A stretch of 12,550 bases of DNA from Nanopusillaceae archaeon (GTDB lineage: Archaea > Nanobdellota > Nanobdellia > Nanobdellales > Nanobdellaceae): assembly GCA_049973735.1 (NCBI GenBank), contig JBMFJL010000012.1, forward strand, positions 1-12,550, read 5' to 3'. Shown here one piece after another: positions 1,872 through 11,650 of this stretch. Under the pieces are notes generated by a model. That model ran no database searches, was not told the DNA's origin, and was given only the letters and a program-made list of their open reading frames with translations. The stretch's first letter is position 1. Each line of letters opens with the position of its first letter. Both the position numbers and the translations under genes were made by a program.

Positions 1872-1946
1872 TGCCCCCGCCGGGATTTGAACCCGGGTCA
1901 TAGGGACGAAAACCCTATATCCTAGACCTGGCTAGACGACGGGGGC
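1872..1946 (-). tRNA. tRNA-Glu (anticodon UUC), contiguous, no intron seen, CCA not encoded
   Basis: Hand-folded from the minus strand: GCCCCCG-UC-GUCU-AGCCAGGUCUA-GGAU-A-UAGGG-UUUUCGU-CCCUA-UGAC-CCGGG-UUCAAAU-CCCGG-CGGGGGC-A. The acceptor stem is 7/7 G:C. The T-loop is UUCAAAU, G18G19 are present, and the anticodon loop is UU-UUC-GU. The discriminator is A and is followed by TTG, so CCA is not encoded. Confidence 0.9.
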
Positions 1947-2265: not shown

Positions 2266-3651
2266 ATGTTAGAAAAAAAAGAAAACTTTATTGAAAAAGC
2301 AGAGAATATAAAATATGAGTTAATAATAAAGGGACCACTTACTGAAGAAAAAATAAAGATGATTTCAAATATAAAGGGTGAACCGGATTGGATGTTAGAT
2401 ATTAGATTAAAAGCGTTTAAATATTTCGAAAAACTTCCATTACCAGATTTTGGACCAGATTTATTCAAAATTAATTTTGATAATATAGTTTATTATGGTT
2501 CTATTACAAGATATCCAAAACCTGTTAAATGGGAAGAATTACCAGAATATATAAAAGAAACTATAGAAAAATTAGGATTAAAAGAGGAATTTAAATTTTT
2601 AGGAGCATTAAATGTTCAATACGATTCAATACCAATATATAAGGAAGTAAGAAAATATTTAGATCAGGAAGGAATTATATTTACATCATTAGACGAAGGA
2701 GTTAGAGAGTATCCAGAAATAGTTAAAAAATATTTTGCAAAAGTAGTTTCTATAAATGATAATAAATTTGCTGCTTTAAATACATCTGTTTGGTCTGGTG
2801 GAGTATTCATTTATGTTCCTGAAAATAAAAAAGTTGAACTTCCACTTCATGCATATTTTCTAATTAATTTAGAAAATTTAGGCCAATTTGAAAGAACATT
2901 AATAATTGCAGAAAAAAATTCCAAAGTTACTTATATAGAAGGATGTACAGCTCCCATATTTTCATCAAGTCAATTACATGCTGCAGTTGTAGAAATTTTT
3001 GCTAATGATAATTCTCAAGTTACTTATGGTACTATACAGAATTGGTCTAAAAATGTATATAATTTAGTTACAAAGAGAGCGAAGGTTGGAAAAAATTCTA
3101 TAGTAAGATGGATATCTGCGGAATTTGGTAGTAAAGTTACAATGCTATATCCCGGTTTGATTTTGGATGATGATGCTATAGGAGAAATTTATACCATCGG
3201 ATTTGCGACGGATAATCAAATAATAGACACAGGTGGAAGAATAATTGCACTAGGAAAGAATTCTAAAGGCTTTATACTGTCAAAGTCTATAGCAATAGGG
3301 AAAGAAAAAGAAGCAATTTCCATAAATAGAATAGATATAAAGTTAAACAACAATAGTTATGTAATTTCAAAATGCGATTCGTTAATAGAGAATAAGGGAA
3401 AAGTAGAATCTATACCAAGAATTGAAAAATATAGCGAACATAGTTATTATAATCATGAAGCTAAAATGGAAAAAATTGATAATGAAAAGATATTTTATTT
3501 AAAATCTCTAGGATTGGAAGAAAAAGAGGCTAAGAGATTATTTTTACTTGGTTTCTTAGATGATGTATTTCAACATTTTCCTCCATCATATCGTATAGAA
3601 GTTATGAAGTTGGCCAATTTAGAATTAGAAGAAATAGGTGGATTTGGATAA
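2266..3651 (+). CDS. sufB: Fe-S cluster assembly scaffold protein SufB
   Basis: 461 aa. The N-terminal GEPDWMLDIRLKAFKYFEKLPLPDFGP and the C-terminal EKIFYLKSLGLEEKEAKRLFLLGF...LELEEIGGFG match the SufB signature regions (EPxWM...; FYLxSRGIxxxEA) as I recall them. Length is typical for SufB. Confidence 0.88.
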   Translation: MLEKKENFIEKAENIKYELIIKGPLTEEKIKMISNIKGEPDWMLDIRLKAFKYFEKLPLPDFGPDLFKINFDNIVYYGSITRYPKPVKWEELPEYIKETIEKLGLKEEFKFLGALNVQYDSIPIYKEVRKYLDQEGIIFTSLDEGVREYPEIVKKYFAKVVSINDNKFAALNTSVWSGGVFIYVPENKKVELPLHAYFLINLENLGQFERTLIIAEKNSKVTYIEGCTAPIFSSSQLHAAVVEIFANDNSQVTYGTIQNWSKNVYNLVTKRAKVGKNSIVRWISAEFGSKVTMLYPGLILDDDAIGEIYTIGFATDNQIIDTGGRIIALGKNSKGFILSKSIAIGKEKEAISINRIDIKLNNNSYVISKCDSLIENKGKVESIPRIEKYSEHSYYNHEAKMEKIDNEKIFYLKSLGLEEKEAKRLFLLGFLDDVFQHFPPSYRIEVMKLANLELEEIGGFG

Positions 3652-3652
3652 A

Positions 3653-4897
3653 ATGCTAGATCCTTATAAAATAAGGGAAGATTTTCCAATATTGAAAAGG
3701 AAAATAAATGGAAAAGATTTAATCTATTTTGATAATGCAGCAACAACTCAAAAACCATTAAGAGTAATAAATAAATTTTTAGAAGTTTATTCTAATTATT
3801 ATGCCAATATTCATAGAGGAATACATACTTTAAGTATGGAAGCATCAGAAAAATATGAAGAAGCTCATAAATTGGTAGCAGATTTTATTGGCGCAAAAAA
3901 TTGGAGAGAAATAATATTTACTAGAAATACTACAGAATCAATAAATTTGGTAGCATATTCTTATGGTTTAAATGCAGTTAAGAGAGGGGAAAAAATTGTA
4001 ATAACCAAAATGGAGCATCATGCAAATTTAGTACCATGGCAATTTGTTTCAAAAAAGACTGGAGCAAAATTAGAATATATAGAAATAGATAATAATTTTA
4101 GATTAGATATGGAAAGTGTAGAAAAAATAATAGATGATAAAACAAAAATAGTTGCTATAACCCATGCTTCGAATGTTTTAGGTACGATAAATCCGATAGA
4201 AGAAATAATAAAGATTGCGCATGAGCATGGTGCAATTGTTTTAGTTGATGCGGCTCAAAGCATACCACATATTCAAATAGATGTAAAGAAGTATGATGTG
4301 GATTTCTTAGCATTTAGTGCGCATAAAATGATGGGACCAGATGGTATTGGCATATTATATGGAAAAGAAGAAATTCTAGAAAAGATGGAACCATTCTTAT
4401 TGGGTGGAGATATGATAAAGGATGTGGATTTGTATGAATCAAAGTGGAATGATTTACCATGGAAATTTGAAGCAGGTACACCAAATATAGTGGGAGGAAT
4501 AGTATTTGGAGAAACTATAAGATATATAAATGAAATAGGAATAAAGAATATTGAAGAATATGATAAATACATTACAAAATATTTTATAGATAAATATCAC
4601 GAATATAAGAATGATAATTTAATTTTGATTGGACCGGATGATTATCATGATAGAACACCTACTTTTTCTTTCTATACTCCTAAATACAAGTCTCATCAAA
4701 TAGCAAAAATTTTAGATATTAATGGAATTGCTGTAAGATCAGGTTTTCATTGTGCTCATCCACTCTTAAAGAATATAAAAATATTAAATAATACTCTATT
4801 TGACCTTGGAGGTACTTTTAGAGCAAGTTTATACATATATAATACTAGAGAAGAAGTAGATTATTTCTTTGAAATTTTAAATAAGTATATTAAATAA
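3653..4897 (+). CDS. sufS: Cysteine desulfurase, SufS/CsdA-type (class V aminotransferase)
   Basis: Motifs seen: FDNAATTQKP, HHANLVPWQ, the PLP-lysine motif SAHKMMGPDGIGILYGK, and the catalytic-Cys loop VRSGFHCAHP. The ORF track starts at a GTG (3638) that overlaps sufB by 14 nt. I prefer the in-frame ATG at 3653, 1 nt after the sufB stop, with AGGTG 11-17 nt upstream. Confidence 0.88.
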   Translation: MLDPYKIREDFPILKRKINGKDLIYFDNAATTQKPLRVINKFLEVYSNYYANIHRGIHTLSMEASEKYEEAHKLVADFIGAKNWREIIFTRNTTESINLVAYSYGLNAVKRGEKIVITKMEHHANLVPWQFVSKKTGAKLEYIEIDNNFRLDMESVEKIIDDKTKIVAITHASNVLGTINPIEEIIKIAHEHGAIVLVDAAQSIPHIQIDVKKYDVDFLAFSAHKMMGPDGIGILYGKEEILEKMEPFLLGGDMIKDVDLYESKWNDLPWKFEAGTPNIVGGIVFGETIRYINEIGIKNIEEYDKYITKYFIDKYHEYKNDNLILIGPDDYHDRTPTFSFYTPKYKSHQIAKILDINGIAVRSGFHCAHPLLKNIKILNNTLFDLGGTFRASLYIYNTREEVDYFFEILNKYIK

Positions 4898-7217
4898 AAT
4901 TTTCAAGCCATTTATATATTGTTTTTATAGATTTTTTAATGATTCTTCTAGATTCATATTTCTTTAGATCAAAATAGTCCATTATTTTTTTAAAACTCCA
5001 CGAAAGTAAGAATTTAGCAACAAGTATTTCTTCATATTTTTCATCAATCTTTGGTTTATCCTTGTATGTATATAATAAATAATATATATATGATAATTTT
5101 GCTACATCGGCAGCGGCTTCGTAGGTCATTGGAGATTCGAGATATCCTTTCAATCTCTCTAACTGGTTTTCGGTAAGTATTAATTTAAAATGAGGTCTAA
5201 ATTCGTAAGGTGTTTCTAATATTTTTAATATTATTTTTGGTTCTAGGTCAAAATATACATCTGATATTTGATTTATGAACCTCCATCTAAATTCATAATT
5301 TAATTTTTTAATTATTTTTTCGGATTTTTCATTTAATGGTTTAAGAACAATTCCAGAATATTCGCCAGAAACTTTATTTTTTTCTGGGGATAAGTGAATT
5401 AACACAAAATTATTTTTTTGCCAAAAATTAAGAAGTTCATATGTAATACCAAAGCTTGAACCTAGCCAATCATATTTATTTTCTTTTCCCCATTCGTATA
5501 ATTTTTCTAGTGCTATAGATCCTAAACCAAGTCCTTGAATTTCTGGTATTGTAGCAATTCTAACTATTCTCAATCCTCTCAATTTTGCAAATTCTTTTAG
5601 TCTATAATGTTTTACAATAATATCGGGTATAATATTGCCTTTAGGTTTGAAATCTCTTAACATTCTTTCAATTGTTTCATCATCTATGTTACCTTCATAG
5701 GCTACTTGAATACCATTTACAATTTTCCCATTTTTTAGTTCAAGAACAAAAGCATCATGATGTGGTGCATCAGCAAGCATAGCAATATCATTAGGTTTAT
5801 TTTGATAATGTGCAAGTATATATATACCAACAAAATTTTTTAATTTTGGATTATCATTATAAAACCATTCTTTTAATGGTACTTTGTAAAAATTAACTTC
5901 TTTTTTCTTTATAAGTTCTATGTCTTTTTCATTAATCTCTTCTGGTTCAGAATCTAATAATAGAGAGTCATATAACCATTTTTCTATAGGATCTCCATCA
6001 TTGTATCTTATTGGTTCATTCATGAAGTATCTATATATTTTAACGTCCTTCAGGCTGTTTAGGTATTTAATAAATTTCACAGAAAATGATCTTCCAGCTC
6101 CTTCATATCCGTGTATAGTTGAAGAGAAAACAATTTTATTATACTTCTCTGTAAATTTATATAAAAAGTTTATTCCAATTCCGGCAGCTTCATCAACAAA
6201 TAAAAAGTCATATTTTTTCTTTAATATATTTATAGGTTCTCTATATTCAATGTATATCTTATCTTTAATACTTATTTTAGTTCTACTTATTTCTCTAAAT
6301 TCTATTCCATTTTTCTTTAATCCTAATTTTAAAAATTCAAATAATGCTTCTACATTTTCTATTGAAGGAGCAGTTATACCAATATCAAACATCTTTTTCT
6401 TTTCTAATAAAATTTCCGATAGTGCTGCTATTGATAAACCCAGTGAAGCACTTTTACCTCTACCCCTATCTGCAATGATCAGAAAAATACTTTTTTCATT
6501 GTTTAACAAATTTTCTAGCATGTTTAAAACATTAACTTGATCTTGAGTCAAACACAATTTATATATTCTGGGAGAGAATTTGCTATTTTCATTTATAATT
6601 ATTTTTTTCCTTTCAGGTATTTTAATTTCCTCGCATTTATAATCCAAACCCTTTATTAAACCTTTTGATGTATCAAAAATAATTATATTATCGTATTGTA
6701 GCAACTTTTGTTTAAATCTATATTCAAAATATTTTCTAACATCTTCAATCTTGTATGGTGGTGTCAATAAATGTTCGTGAAAAGTTGTTGTATTATTTTC
6801 AAAATTATCAAAGTCTTTAACTAATAGAAAAGCAATTCCCGAACCAGATAAAGTTTCTATTATTATTCCTAAGTGATTTGGTGTTAAAGATTTATACATA
6901 TCCAATATTATAATATCAAATGTTTTGCCTAAAACTTTTTTAGAATCTTTGTACTTAACTTTGATAATTTCAAAATCTTTTAAAAGATCTGCTAAATTTT
7001 CAAATCTATATAGATATTCACCATAAAAATCTTCTGTTACATACAGAATCTTTATATCTTTGTAAATATTTAGATTTTTTAAAAATTCATTATATTTTTT
7101 TATCATTTTATTTAATATTTCAAAATAATTATCTCCAGATATTACTACAATACCTCTATGATTATGGTTAAAGATCTTGCATAATAATGCAGAATAAACA
7201 TTCTCAATATTATTCAT
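4890..7217 (-). CDS. tmcA: tRNA/RNA cytidine N4-acetyltransferase (TmcA / NAT10-Kre33 homologue)
   Basis: 775 aa. Motifs seen: Walker A ADRGRGKSASLG, Walker B FVDEAAGI, the STIHGYEGAGRSF motif, and the GNAT acetyl-CoA motif RIVRIATIPEIQGLGLGSIALEKL. The domain order matches the TmcA family. Confidence 0.85.
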   Translation of the reverse strand: MNNIENVYSALLCKIFNHNHRGIVVISGDNYFEILNKMIKKYNEFLKNLNIYKDIKILYVTEDFYGEYLYRFENLADLLKDFEIIKVKYKDSKKVLGKTFDIIILDMYKSLTPNHLGIIIETLSGSGIAFLLVKDFDNFENNTTTFHEHLLTPPYKIEDVRKYFEYRFKQKLLQYDNIIIFDTSKGLIKGLDYKCEEIKIPERKKIIINENSKFSPRIYKLCLTQDQVNVLNMLENLLNNEKSIFLIIADRGRGKSASLGLSIAALSEILLEKKKMFDIGITAPSIENVEALFEFLKLGLKKNGIEFREISRTKISIKDKIYIEYREPINILKKKYDFLFVDEAAGIGINFLYKFTEKYNKIVFSSTIHGYEGAGRSFSVKFIKYLNSLKDVKIYRYFMNEPIRYNDGDPIEKWLYDSLLLDSEPEEINEKDIELIKKKEVNFYKVPLKEWFYNDNPKLKNFVGIYILAHYQNKPNDIAMLADAPHHDAFVLELKNGKIVNGIQVAYEGNIDDETIERMLRDFKPKGNIIPDIIVKHYRLKEFAKLRGLRIVRIATIPEIQGLGLGSIALEKLYEWGKENKYDWLGSSFGITYELLNFWQKNNFVLIHLSPEKNKVSGEYSGIVLKPLNEKSEKIIKKLNYEFRWRFINQISDVYFDLEPKIILKILETPYEFRPHFKLILTENQLERLKGYLESPMTYEAAADVAKLSYIYYLLYTYKDKPKIDEKYEEILVAKFLLSWSFKKIMDYFDLKKYESRRIIKKSIKTIYKWLENFI

Positions 7218-7255
7218 AATTTATATATTTATAGGGAATAAGTTTTAATTTAGAT

Positions 7256-7424
7256 TTAACGTTAAAGTGTTAAACTATTATGTTAAACCAATGTTAAGCA
7301 AAAATTAATATATGATAAAGTAATGTTAAGATGTTAAATCATTGAGTTAAATAATTATTAAATCGATGTTAAACTTATAAGTCTTACGTTAAAGTGTTAA
7401 TGAGTAAAGTTAAATAAATGTTAA
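7256..7424 (+). repeat. Phased GTTAA iteron-like array (12 copies, three ~40-bp super-repeats)
   Basis: GTTAA starts at 7261, 7269, 7282, 7293, 7325, 7333, 7346, 7368, 7388, 7396, 7409 and 7420, all in the same orientation, with a degenerate ATTAA at 7357. The spacing pattern 8-13-11 recurs. The 15-mer ACGTTAAAGTGTTAA is exactly duplicated at 7259-7273 and 7386-7400, and a 12/15 copy lies at 7323-7337. A perfect palindrome TTAACGTTAA lies at 7256-7265. Confidence 0.85.
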
Positions 7425-7425
7425 A

Positions 7426-9195
7426 CTAGAGTAAATAATATCTTAACTTTGCATCCAGGGATTTTAATAGTTTCACATCATCAACAATTACTATAGATAA
7501 ACCCTTTGTTATACCTCCGGCATACAATCTAGAGCTCCTACCAGAACCTTGTAAGTAAGTCTTAAAATCTACAATATTTAAAATTAGATTGCCATTTTCT
7601 TCAGTTATAGATACCTCAGGATCATTTTTAAGCTTTTCAACCATATCCTTATTTTTTAAATGGTGTGAAATAGTGTTATATAAATCTAATAGATTATCTA
7701 ATAAATATTTGTTAAAACCTTCCACATTTTTATCTTCAGATTTGAATATTTCAGACAAAAATCTTATAGCATCTGGAGACAATTTTTTTAGATTTCTTTT
7801 TAGATTTTCTATTTTCCTAAGTAAAATATTTTTTTCTGTGTCTGTAAGATTATTTGCAATCAAAGTGCCCAGTATAATAATGTTTGAAATGTTTTTATCT
7901 AAGTTGCTTATATTTATCCTAATCTTTGGTATTCCGACAAAGATTACATATTTTATCCTTTCTGGTATATCTATACCTCTAATAAGTATACCATAAACGT
8001 CTGCAATCCCAATTAATATATTTATCTCTTTATTAATGAATTTCTTTATAATCTCTTCTATATCCTTAGATTTTGAGGTTACAACTTCAGATTTTATATT
8101 ATTATTTTTTAAAAAATCATTCAATTCACTTGCGTAATTTATTCCTTTTTCTTTACTAACAAAAATAATTATACCATCTTCCAATTTTTTAACTATATCT
8201 AATATTTGTTCTTTTAGATCCTTATTTTTATCTGGAATATAATAAACATCTAAAATATTTCTTAACTTAGAAGTTCCCGTACCGATTGTAAAATTTGCAA
8301 GTTCTTTGTACAATTTTATTCTTTTACCTCTCAAACTACCTGTTGCTGAAGATAAAACAATTATACCATGTTCTTTATTCCTTATTTCTAAAAATTTTTT
8401 ATATATATCGCTATTAAAATCTAATTTTCCAGAAGATTTTAAGTCTATTATTTTTTTTGCTATATTAATATCTTCTTCTGTAAATCCAGATAATATAAAA
8501 ATTCTTTCTATATTTTTAGATCCTTTAAAGAAAGAATCTACATCATCTATAAATATTATATCAAATCTTTTATCTTTTAATAAATCAAAGTTTTTTGATA
8601 GAAATTGGTTAGATATGACTAAAATATTATAATCTCCCTCTTTTATTTTCTCTTTTTGTTCTTTTTTATCTTTTCCATAATACCCTTGTACTTTTACATT
8701 GATATTTAGTTTGTCTATAAATTCGTTAAGTCTATTTAATGTTTGTTTTACTAATAATCTTGTAGGTAATATTATCAATATTTTTTTATTAAATTTATGT
8801 GAAAAATAAATAGAACTTAATATTATGAAAGTAGATTTGCCAATACCTGTTGGTGCAATCATAGAAAAACTAATATTTTTGTATAATCTTTTGAACCAGG
8901 TTATTTGTATCTGCCATGGATAATTATTCAAAGCCTTTTTAAAGAATTCTTTAAATTCTTCTGTTTCTTTGTATATATTGTATATTTTTTCAAATTCTTT
9001 TAATTTATTTTTCTCCTTTAATTTAACATATAATTTATCTAAAAAATCCTTTTGATTTTTTATTTTTATTAACTCTTCAACATCTTTTTCATCAAGATCA
9101 TTTTCACAAGGTAAGTTATTAATCAATCTATCAGAACTAATTTCATTACCGCAATTGAAGCATAAATTTTTTAATCTTAAATGGATATTTTCCAT
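7426..9195 (-). CDS. rgy: Reverse gyrase, helicase-domain subunit only (split reverse gyrase, N-terminal half)
   Basis: 589 aa. Motifs seen: N-terminal zinc-finger-like CFNCGNEISSDRLINNLPCEND, SF2 motif I APTGIGKST, motif II FIDDVD, motif III SSATG, and motif VI QGSGRSSRLYAGGITKGLSIVIVDD, which is characteristic of reverse gyrase. The ORF stops about 25 aa after motif VI. No Toprim or topoisomerase IA module follows; downstream are the repeat array and tmcA. Confidence 0.85.
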   Translation of the reverse strand: MENIHLRLKNLCFNCGNEISSDRLINNLPCENDLDEKDVEELIKIKNQKDFLDKLYVKLKEKNKLKEFEKIYNIYKETEEFKEFFKKALNNYPWQIQITWFKRLYKNISFSMIAPTGIGKSTFIILSSIYFSHKFNKKILIILPTRLLVKQTLNRLNEFIDKLNINVKVQGYYGKDKKEQKEKIKEGDYNILVISNQFLSKNFDLLKDKRFDIIFIDDVDSFFKGSKNIERIFILSGFTEEDINIAKKIIDLKSSGKLDFNSDIYKKFLEIRNKEHGIIVLSSATGSLRGKRIKLYKELANFTIGTGTSKLRNILDVYYIPDKNKDLKEQILDIVKKLEDGIIIFVSKEKGINYASELNDFLKNNNIKSEVVTSKSKDIEEIIKKFINKEINILIGIADVYGILIRGIDIPERIKYVIFVGIPKIRINISNLDKNISNIIILGTLIANNLTDTEKNILLRKIENLKRNLKKLSPDAIRFLSEIFKSEDKNVEGFNKYLLDNLLDLYNTISHHLKNKDMVEKLKNDPEVSITEENGNLILNIVDFKTYLQGSGRSSRLYAGGITKGLSIVIVDDVKLLKSLDAKLRYYLL

Positions 9196-9236
9196 AAAAT
9201 TCTTATTTTAAAAATTAATTTATAAACTATTTTATT
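9196..9236. promoter_or_regulatory. 41-bp divergent promoter region (rgy helicase half <-> GINS)
   Basis: The minus strand reads TTTATAAATT (9219-9228), 24-33 nt upstream of the rgy ATG at 9195. The plus strand reads TTTTAAAAA (9206-9214), 23-31 nt upstream of the ATG at 9237. There is no room for 5' UTRs. Confidence 0.4.
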
Positions 9237-11468: not shown

Positions 11469-11473
11469 ATATA

Positions 11474-11650
11474 TTATAACCAACCAAGTTCATATAAAAT
11501 TTTTCTTTTTATTTTTCTTCTATAATCTCCCCATTTATCATCAGGAGAAAATTTTGGAGGAATGACTCTAACAGTTTTATTATTACATTTTGGACATATT
11601 TCTTTGAAAGTATATGTTTTACAGTTTTTACACTTTCTAATTTCCTTCAT
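11474..11650 (-). CDS. nop10: H/ACA RNP subunit Nop10
   Basis: Not in the ORF track because it is too short. Manual translation gives MKEIRKCKNCKTYTFKEICPKCNNKTVRVIPPKFSPDDKWGDYRRKIKRKILYELGWL (58 aa). The CxxC...CPxC zinc ribbon, PPKFSPDD and YRR are the Nop10 signature. Its position after aIF2-alpha is the conserved one. Confidence 0.85.
   Translation of the reverse strand: MKEIRKCKNCKTYTFKEICPKCNNKTVRVIPPKFSPDDKWGDYRRKIKRKILYELGWL

Follow-up and report, generated by a model that had tools for sequence, protein, structure and literature searches.

A helically phased ladder of short TTAAY boxes in the spacer between the reverse gyrase helicase and tmcA genes of Nanopusillaceae and related archaea

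The window analyzed here is an entire 12,550-bp contig (26% GC) of a Nanopusillaceae MAG. Two genes on its minus strand frame the region of interest: rgyH (7426-9195), which encodes the helicase half of reverse gyrase with zf_Rg, DEAD and Helicase_C domains (Pfam) and has homologs named reverse gyrase, and tmcA (4890-7217), which encodes a tRNA/RNA cytidine acetyltransferase containing the TmcA_N, NAT10_TcmA_helicase and GNAT_acetyltr_2 domains and matching, at 100%, a Nanopusillaceae MAG protein from NCBI. Because both genes are on the minus strand, the spacer between them (7218-7425) extends from the rgyH stop codon to the tmcA ATG. Its length of 208 bp, given in the first-pass annotation, is confirmed; the spacer contains no ORF of at least 20 aa, in line with the absence of any ORF beyond a few codons noted there, and it is the sole gene-free gap longer than 60 bp in the window. 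Genes in this contig are packed to an extreme extent, with sufB and sufS overlapping by 14 bp (3638-3651) and the convergent sufS and tmcA overlapping by 8 bp at their 3' ends (4890-4897), which makes the retention of a 208-bp gap unusual. Besides rgyH and tmcA, the window encodes GINS, L44e, SufBS, flagellins and proteins of unknown function without a DNA-binding Pfam match. GC skew within the window tracks the gene strand. A tRNA-Glu(UUC) gene (1872-1946, minus strand), with a TTTATAAA consensus box ~26-33 nt upstream of its 5' end, lies between the flagellin genes and a conserved 82-aa ORF and takes up the one other gap of appreciable size. In the orthologous loci, a Nop10 gene (53-69 aa) is annotated between the genes for eIF2-alpha and a PAC2-family protein; its counterpart in the window, at about 11470-11650 on the minus strand, is below the 60-aa threshold of the ORF listing and overlaps its neighbours.

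The spacer is filled by a ladder of short boxes that includes 12 copies of GTTAA on the plus strand, that is, of TTAAC on the transcribed strand. All the coordinates reported in the first-pass annotation were re-derived and found to be correct, and the 12 co-oriented GTTAA and the degenerate ATTAA at 7357 are as described there; this ATTAA is, however, not the only degenerate copy, as a second one is present at 7304, and the spacer also contains one inverted box. Three blocks can be delineated on the minus strand. The rgyH-proximal block (7388-7424) consists of four TTAAC boxes (GTTAA at 7388, 7396, 7409 and 7420 on the plus strand) whose distances from the rgyH stop codon, counted downstream, are +1, +12, +25 and +33. 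The middle block (7325-7372) includes the TTAAC boxes that correspond to GTTAA at 7325, 7333, 7346 and 7368 together with the degenerate TTAAT at 7357-7361. The tmcA-proximal block (7261-7297) again contains four TTAAC boxes (GTTAA at 7261, 7269, 7282 and 7293), the last of which lies at -48 to -44 from the tmcA ATG and abuts an inverted box (-43 to -39), the two forming the perfect palindrome TTAACGTTAA (7256-7265) that had been recognized at this end of the array. The second degenerate TTAAT (7304-7308, minus strand) is located in phase within a 32-bp inter-block 'gap' (turn 11, residual -0.9 bp). The array comprises three units of ~64 bp; also in line with the earlier description, these super-repeats have starts 64 and 63 bp apart and a recurring 8-13-11 spacing of boxes, and the exact 15-mer ACGTTAAAGTGTTAA is found in both units 1 and 3. 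The three units show 63-75% mutual identity and thus remain recognizably related, which shows that the array was built by duplication. The only T5 tract on the transcribed strand (7300-7304, minus strand) is a possible termination signal for rgyH, as far as can be read from the sequence; its position is not conserved across the orthologs.

The density of the boxes greatly exceeds the chance expectation. The remaining 12.3 kb of the window contain 15 GTTAA and 16 TTAAC, or ~0.26 per 208 bp per strand, and in 20,000 shuffles of the spacer the mean number of GTTAA is 0.8 (mononucleotide) or 1.4 (first-order Markov), with a maximum of 6-7. The resulting expectation of 0.3-1.4 copies, compared to the 12 observed, agrees with the previous estimate of about one or fewer and corresponds to a Poisson P(≥12 GTTAA) of 4e-8 to 2e-16. 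Among the 5-mers of the window that are not homopolymers, GTTAA forms the top cluster, and no other non-trivial 5-mer is comparable.

The boxes follow the helical repeat of DNA. It had been proposed that most of the sites fall on one face of the duplex, and the Rayleigh statistic bears this out, with a peak at 10.6 bp (R = 0.77) in the window that none of the 2000 random placements equalled. When periods from 7 to 16 bp are scanned, the six closest lineages, whose TmcA identity is 71-79%, are best fitted at 10.6-10.7 bp (R = 0.75-0.97); for L001 and L002 as well, none of the 2000 random placements equalled the fit. A period of 10.0 bp fits poorly (R = 0.08-0.40). On the 10.6-bp ladder, a TTAAY is found within ~1 bp of nearly every turn over 13-18 turns. 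A regular subset of the boxes is shifted from this phase by +2 to +2.5 bp (turns 2, 8 and 14 in the window): a conserved off-phase box is located 8 bp ahead of every third in-phase box, and the sub-block length is 31.8 bp.

The rgyH-spacer-tmcA synteny is retained in relatives with TmcA sequences that are 58-79% identical, and the array is present in every such spacer that was fetched. The comparison of orthologous spacers suggested in the first-pass annotation thus shows conservation in L001, L002, L003, L183, L221, L005, L006 and L248, with spacers of 167-228 bp (94 bp in L248). In particular, the 228-bp spacer of L001 (JGI) contains 14 TTAAC, that of L002 (ENA; 167-179 bp) seven TTAAC and five TTAAT, that of Nanobdella aerobiophila (L003/L004, near 394.6 kb of the complete 668,961-bp genome AP019769.1; 215 bp) seven TTAAC and 10 TTAAT, and those of the metagenomic L183 and L221 (176 bp each) nine and eight TTAAC, respectively. 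In Nanoclepta (L005 and L250, one organism; 175 bp), L006 (197 bp) and L248 (94 bp), boxes are found in both orientations, in a convergent TTAAC-then-GTTAA arrangement. Palindrome-like composites are also present in the relatives, namely GTTAAC in L002 and L005 and TTAACgcaatGTTAA in L006. The most distant rgyH (L251, 47% identity) is followed by four TTAAC with an 11-bp spacing within the 41 bp between its stop codon and the contig end. The tmcA orthologs without rgyH upstream (L007 and L249) lack the array.

In the four-way alignment of the spacers, invariance is essentially limited to the TTAA(C/T) cores. Pairwise identity is 85-98% in the box cores and 57-86% in the rest of the spacer, values that are somewhat inflated by anchoring of the aligner on the repeats. 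The base after TTAA is C or T, with A in just one or two cases per spacer compared to the 38-41% A on this strand, and the consensus of 57 boxes is tTTAACat. In ~130 kb of related DNA, runs of at least three boxes are confined to this spacer, with the exception of one three-box run inside an ORF, and the array is the sole cluster of this kind in each of the 10-22 kb loci examined. The retention of 170-230 bp filled with a phased, deeply conserved ladder indicates that the spacer is under strong selection. We conclude that the ladder is a real, strongly selected and previously undescribed element, which is likely to be a phased multi-site protein-binding array.

Both ends of the ladder are anchored. 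At the rgyH end, the offsets of +1, +12, +25 and +33 after the stop codon are shared by the window, L002, L003, L183 and L221; they are moved by 6 bp in L248 (7, 18, 31 and 39) and by 9 bp in L001. At the tmcA end, six lineages have a box at -44 to -50 from the ATG. Measured from the first box to the last, the ladder spans a nearly integral number of turns in four of the six closest lineages (15.0, 12.1, 17.1 and 12.1); the values for the other two, both with an off-phase outermost TTAAY, are 15.2 (L221) and 16.5 (L001).

The promoter context of the two genes differs. The TTTATAAA sequence is found at about -31 to -24 from the ATG of rgyH, L44e, sufB and flaB1, as well as upstream of tRNA-Glu, which implies leaderless mRNAs in this lineage. 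The TATA-like elements of tmcA, at about -34 to -22, are all weaker than this local consensus, and the last ladder box is located directly upstream of them. The putative element AAATTAAAA (7243-7251, minus strand; -34 to -26 from the ATG) might serve as the weak TATA box of a presumably leaderless tmcA mRNA. In L248, L005 and L006, inverted boxes run into the putative tmcA core promoter. The possibility that the boxes are TATA decoys was considered and rejected because the local TATA box is TTTATAAA whereas the boxes avoid A after TTAA. The box A of N. equitans reads TTTAAA (PMC3491384). Between the divergent rgyH and GINS, a 41-bp spacer (window 9196-9236) contains two TATA boxes, TTTATAAA and TTTTAAAAA, which are arranged back to back and located, relative to the ATG of the respective gene, at about -31 to -24; the arrangement is kept in L001-L003 and appears to be a compact bidirectional promoter for two leaderless mRNAs.

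The conservation of the cores, the 10.6-bp ladder in six lineages and the presence of boxes in either orientation in distant relatives lend good support to the core reading of the first-pass annotation, namely, that the spacer is probably a multi-site platform bound by protein along one face of the DNA. Among the three roles proposed there, regulation upstream of tmcA fits best, given that the end of the ladder is fixed at -44 to -50, directly upstream of the weak TATA-like element. The explanation that we tentatively favor, at somewhat less than even confidence, is a docking ladder at the DNA level: a small sequence-specific protein would bind the spacer and in this way control, or else insulate, the promoter of tmcA, which is weak. 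Under this scenario, about one tTTAAY(a) box per helical turn, over 13-18 turns on a single face of the duplex, would be coated cooperatively by a small sequence-specific DNA-binding protein. In other systems, arrays of this kind are bound by dimeric ribbon-helix-helix, winged-helix or AbrB/MraZ-like proteins. The filament formed by protein and DNA would cover the region between the rgyH stop codon and the weak core promoter of tmcA, ending shortly before the latter. Cis-regulation would be the most likely job of this filament, whereby tmcA transcription might be set by recruitment or by occlusion of TBP/TFB at a fixed helical face; the filament could also act as a roadblock that keeps transcription of the strongly promoted rgyH from reading through into tmcA. 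As in operators and upstream activating sequences (UAS), a conserved short box is repeated here at a fixed position beside a putative core promoter. Several observations weigh against this explanation. No DNA-binding gene was detected by Pfam within 10 kb of the ladder in the window and the fetched loci, and the 82-aa ORF and the conserved neighbour proteins, considered as candidate regulators, have no DNA-binding Pfam match. Furthermore, 12-18 sites far exceed the archaeal operator and UAS arrays known to us and are more common in centromeres or iterons, and the block that is most conserved in position adjoins the rgyH stop codon, not the promoter. The absence of the array in L007 and L249, which have no rgyH upstream, shows that tmcA does not need it everywhere.

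Instead, the ladder could serve chromosome maintenance, be it as a centromere-like site coated by an adaptor for segregation or as a replication-control or fork-barrier element of the iteron type, present once in the ~0.6-Mb genome of these archaea, which are ultra-small symbionts; we consider such a once-per-genome site with an adaptor protein unlikely, and the same holds for its variant, in which a 170-bp twist-dependent array with one box per turn, located after the reverse gyrase gene, would be a topology and temperature sensor. A chromosome-maintenance site of this kind would, if real, be the first cis-element of its type to be defined in DPANN archaea. Plasmid centromeres and iterons (parC, parH, tubC) are likewise built with one box per turn over 12-18 turns, and tandem short boxes in helical phase are precisely what the six closest lineages show; the array is also the only such cluster in every locus examined, is deeply conserved at one syntenic position and lies 1.8 kb from a GINS gene, and its convergent boxes in L005, L006 and L248 recall inverted origin or terminator sites. 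However, the flanking genes are co-directional, the distance of the boxes to the tmcA promoter is fixed, and neither Nanobdella nor any of the other loci has an orc1/cdc6, parA/segA, parM or tubZ-like gene in the surrounding 10 kb (for orc1/cdc6, neither the gene nor the Pfam family is found within this distance in L001-L006 or L250), nor is a cognate adaptor, NTPase or Rep gene found by Pfam among the neighbours. For the origin role suggested in the first-pass annotation, we find no positive support: as had been pointed out there, the array does not match canonical ORB or mini-ORB elements, there being no ORB-type dyad, no TCCA or TGGA and no G-string in the spacer (the sole G/C run is a single GGG/CCC), and no obvious unwinding element is present, the largest box-free stretch being 20 bp. 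Repeats inverted around an AT-rich repeat-free unwinding element are not seen in the window, where the 12 boxes are co-oriented, and a convergent arrangement occurs only in the distant lineages. A 10.6-bp box spacing is too dense for Orc1/Cdc6 footprints.

It is less probable still, in our assessment, that the ladder is an architectural element without a dedicated binder, in which phased flexible TTAA steps position histone or chromatin oligomers or form a twist- or temperature-sensitive stretch by the reverse gyrase gene. The strict phasing over ~170 bp, the 32-bp sub-blocks and 64-bp units, which approach the footprints of archaeal histone dimers and tetramers, the period of 10.6-10.7 bp, which by a general estimate matches relaxed DNA at 70-80 °C, and the involvement of both neighbours, reverse gyrase and TmcA, in thermoadaptation are all compatible with this possibility, but the dinucleotide period of 10.0-10.2 bp and the 30-bp steps of wrapped DNA in histone or hypernucleosome positioning are not found: the fit at 10.0 bp is poor, the 31.8-bp block slips out of register with a 30-bp histone step, and the asymmetric TTAAY, with A avoided, together with the conserved off-phase box points to base-specific recognition. 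Intrinsic curvature was rejected by the TnAn-versus-AnTn rule; repeats of the TnAn type are reportedly not intrinsically curved, a classical result of Hagerman. We regard as very unlikely the possibility that the boxes function in RNA, as UUAAC repeats in the rgyH 3' UTR, the motif role put forward in the first-pass annotation, or in an rgyH-tmcA intercistronic RNA that binds a protein or pairs with, for example, the mRNA of the topoisomerase half. In the closest lineages, the boxes indeed have the orientation of both genes, and the first of them starts 1 nt after the rgyH stop codon; moreover, in N. equitans, C/D box sRNA genes flank the same split-gene half (Randau, 2012; PMC3491384), which is why the absence of C boxes (RUGAUGA) and D boxes (CUGA) from both strands of the spacer matters. 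A 10.6-bp period is meaningless for RNA, and this B-DNA period, the variation of spacer length towards whole helical turns and the flips of the boxes to GTTAA in L005, L006 and L248, along with the palindromes in distant lineages, are compatible with recognition of duplex DNA and not with an RNA motif. Folding of both strands yields no structure signal (z = +0.74 sense, 0.02 antisense), and neither an Rfam search (E ≤ 1) nor a tRNA scan of the spacer produced a hit. In view of the relationship of the units, at 63-75% identity, the ladder could also have arisen neutrally, through tandem duplication of a unit of 32/64 bp, and be without function. This we deem highly improbable, given that the cores are conserved and the flanks diverged across lineages with 58-79% TmcA identity, that box offsets are identical in five lineages, that the phase survives box turnover (L002, R = 0.97), and that a 170-230 bp spacer is maintained in genomes where other gaps are 60 bp or shorter. 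Finally, a CRISPR array was considered and rejected, as the boxes are 5-8 bp long at a spacing of 8-13 bp, in contrast to repeats of at least 23 nt with unique spacers of similar length.

By analogy, the ladder appears to resemble most the ParR-parC and ParG-parH arrays, along with head-to-tail arrays of winged-helix or MraZ boxes. ParR-parC (R1, pB171 and pSK41) and ParG-parH/OF (TP228) are plasmid centromere/operator arrays bound by ribbon-helix-helix adaptors; like the ladder, they consist of 8-20 short boxes, about one per turn, with AT-rich spacers, in direct or inverted orientation, in blocks by or over a promoter, and their cooperative coating on one face is what we propose for the ladder. 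The differences are that the ladder has no par genes nearby, is located on an archaeal chromosome, has a 5-8 bp box and includes an off-phase box every third or sixth turn. The OmpR/PhoB/CtrA sites (pho boxes) are likewise direct repeats 10-11 bp apart, on one face and upstream of a promoter, and the CtrA box TTAA-N7-TTAAC shares its half-site and 11-bp spacing with the TTAAY-N6-TTAAC of the ladder, probably by coincidence; these are bacterial response regulators with 2-6 half-sites, compared to 12-18 in the ladder, and we know of no such regulator in this archaeal lineage. In the case of MraZ, a ring-oligomer AbrB-fold protein, a short box also occurs once per turn (10-bp period) upstream of a promoter, but there are only 3-5 boxes of a different sequence, in the dcw cluster and with the gene of the protein itself adjacent. 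The archaeal UAS, such as the TACATA repeats of EarA at fla promoters and the Ptr2 UAS, are similar in that copies of a short box are located just upstream of the BRE/TATA of a weak promoter; they have two to four copies, and to our knowledge no extended helical ladder has been reported. ORB and mini-ORB clusters at oriC share with the ladder the clustering of repeated elements in an AT-rich intergenic region. The ORBs are 13-36 bp dyads that contain a G-string, flank an unwinding element in inverted orientation and usually have orc1/cdc6 as a neighbour, and all these features are absent here. As in the related lineage of N. equitans, where C/D box sRNA genes border the N-terminal reverse gyrase half NEQ434 (PMC3491384), a special non-coding element is found here beside this split gene; unlike those sRNA genes, the ladder shows no C/D boxes, Rfam hit or RNA structure signal.

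Almost nothing is known about cis-regulatory and chromosome-maintenance elements in Nanobdellota or DPANN in general, and genomes of ~0.6 Mb keep scant non-coding DNA. Being located between split reverse gyrase and the ac4C writer TmcA, the ladder could show how a minimal archaeon controls both thermoadaptation genes or, alternatively, what serves in its chromosome as the mark for segregation or replication. Given that Nanobdella aerobiophila is cultivable with its host, the spacer offers a concrete bait for the proposed binder.

In the literature, we found no description of this element and no archaeal chromosomal ladder of 12-18 boxes with one box per turn. The exact 11-13-8 pattern has no match in viral contigs, and a plasmid BLAST search with the spacer yields only AT-rich chance similarity to a Clostridium butyricum megaplasmid, without boxes. 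Scans of genome contigs and metagenomes for ladders gave at least 120 matches each, mostly bacterial 8-bp tandem TTAAC arrays and simple repeats; among the matches listed, L183 and L221 are the two further orthologous spacers, and the one extra archaeal match, L033, is located inside an ABC-ATPase ORF and is attributed to chance. The tmcA ortholog of L249 (positions 1-330; 58% identity) is preceded by 308 bp up to the contig start, with neither rgyH nor a ladder but with a consensus-type promoter at ~44-56, a GC-richer stretch at 120-250 and, on the opposite strand, a potential ORF of 72 aa (110-328) overlapping the start of tmcA; Rfam yields no hit here. An rgyH homolog (P0123, 64% identity) is encoded on a 773,326-bp NCBI 'Nanoarchaeota archaeon' contig that is probably a complete genome. 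We also observe tandem 8-bp TTAAC/GTTAA units in many contigs of Bacteroidota, Planctomycetota and Patescibacteria, for example, L036 (740-890), L029 (1935-2035) and L008 (2488-2516). These units, which are unrelated to the archaeal ladder, form inverted tandem blocks around a short centre, such as (GGAGTTAA)n followed by (CTCCTTAA)n.
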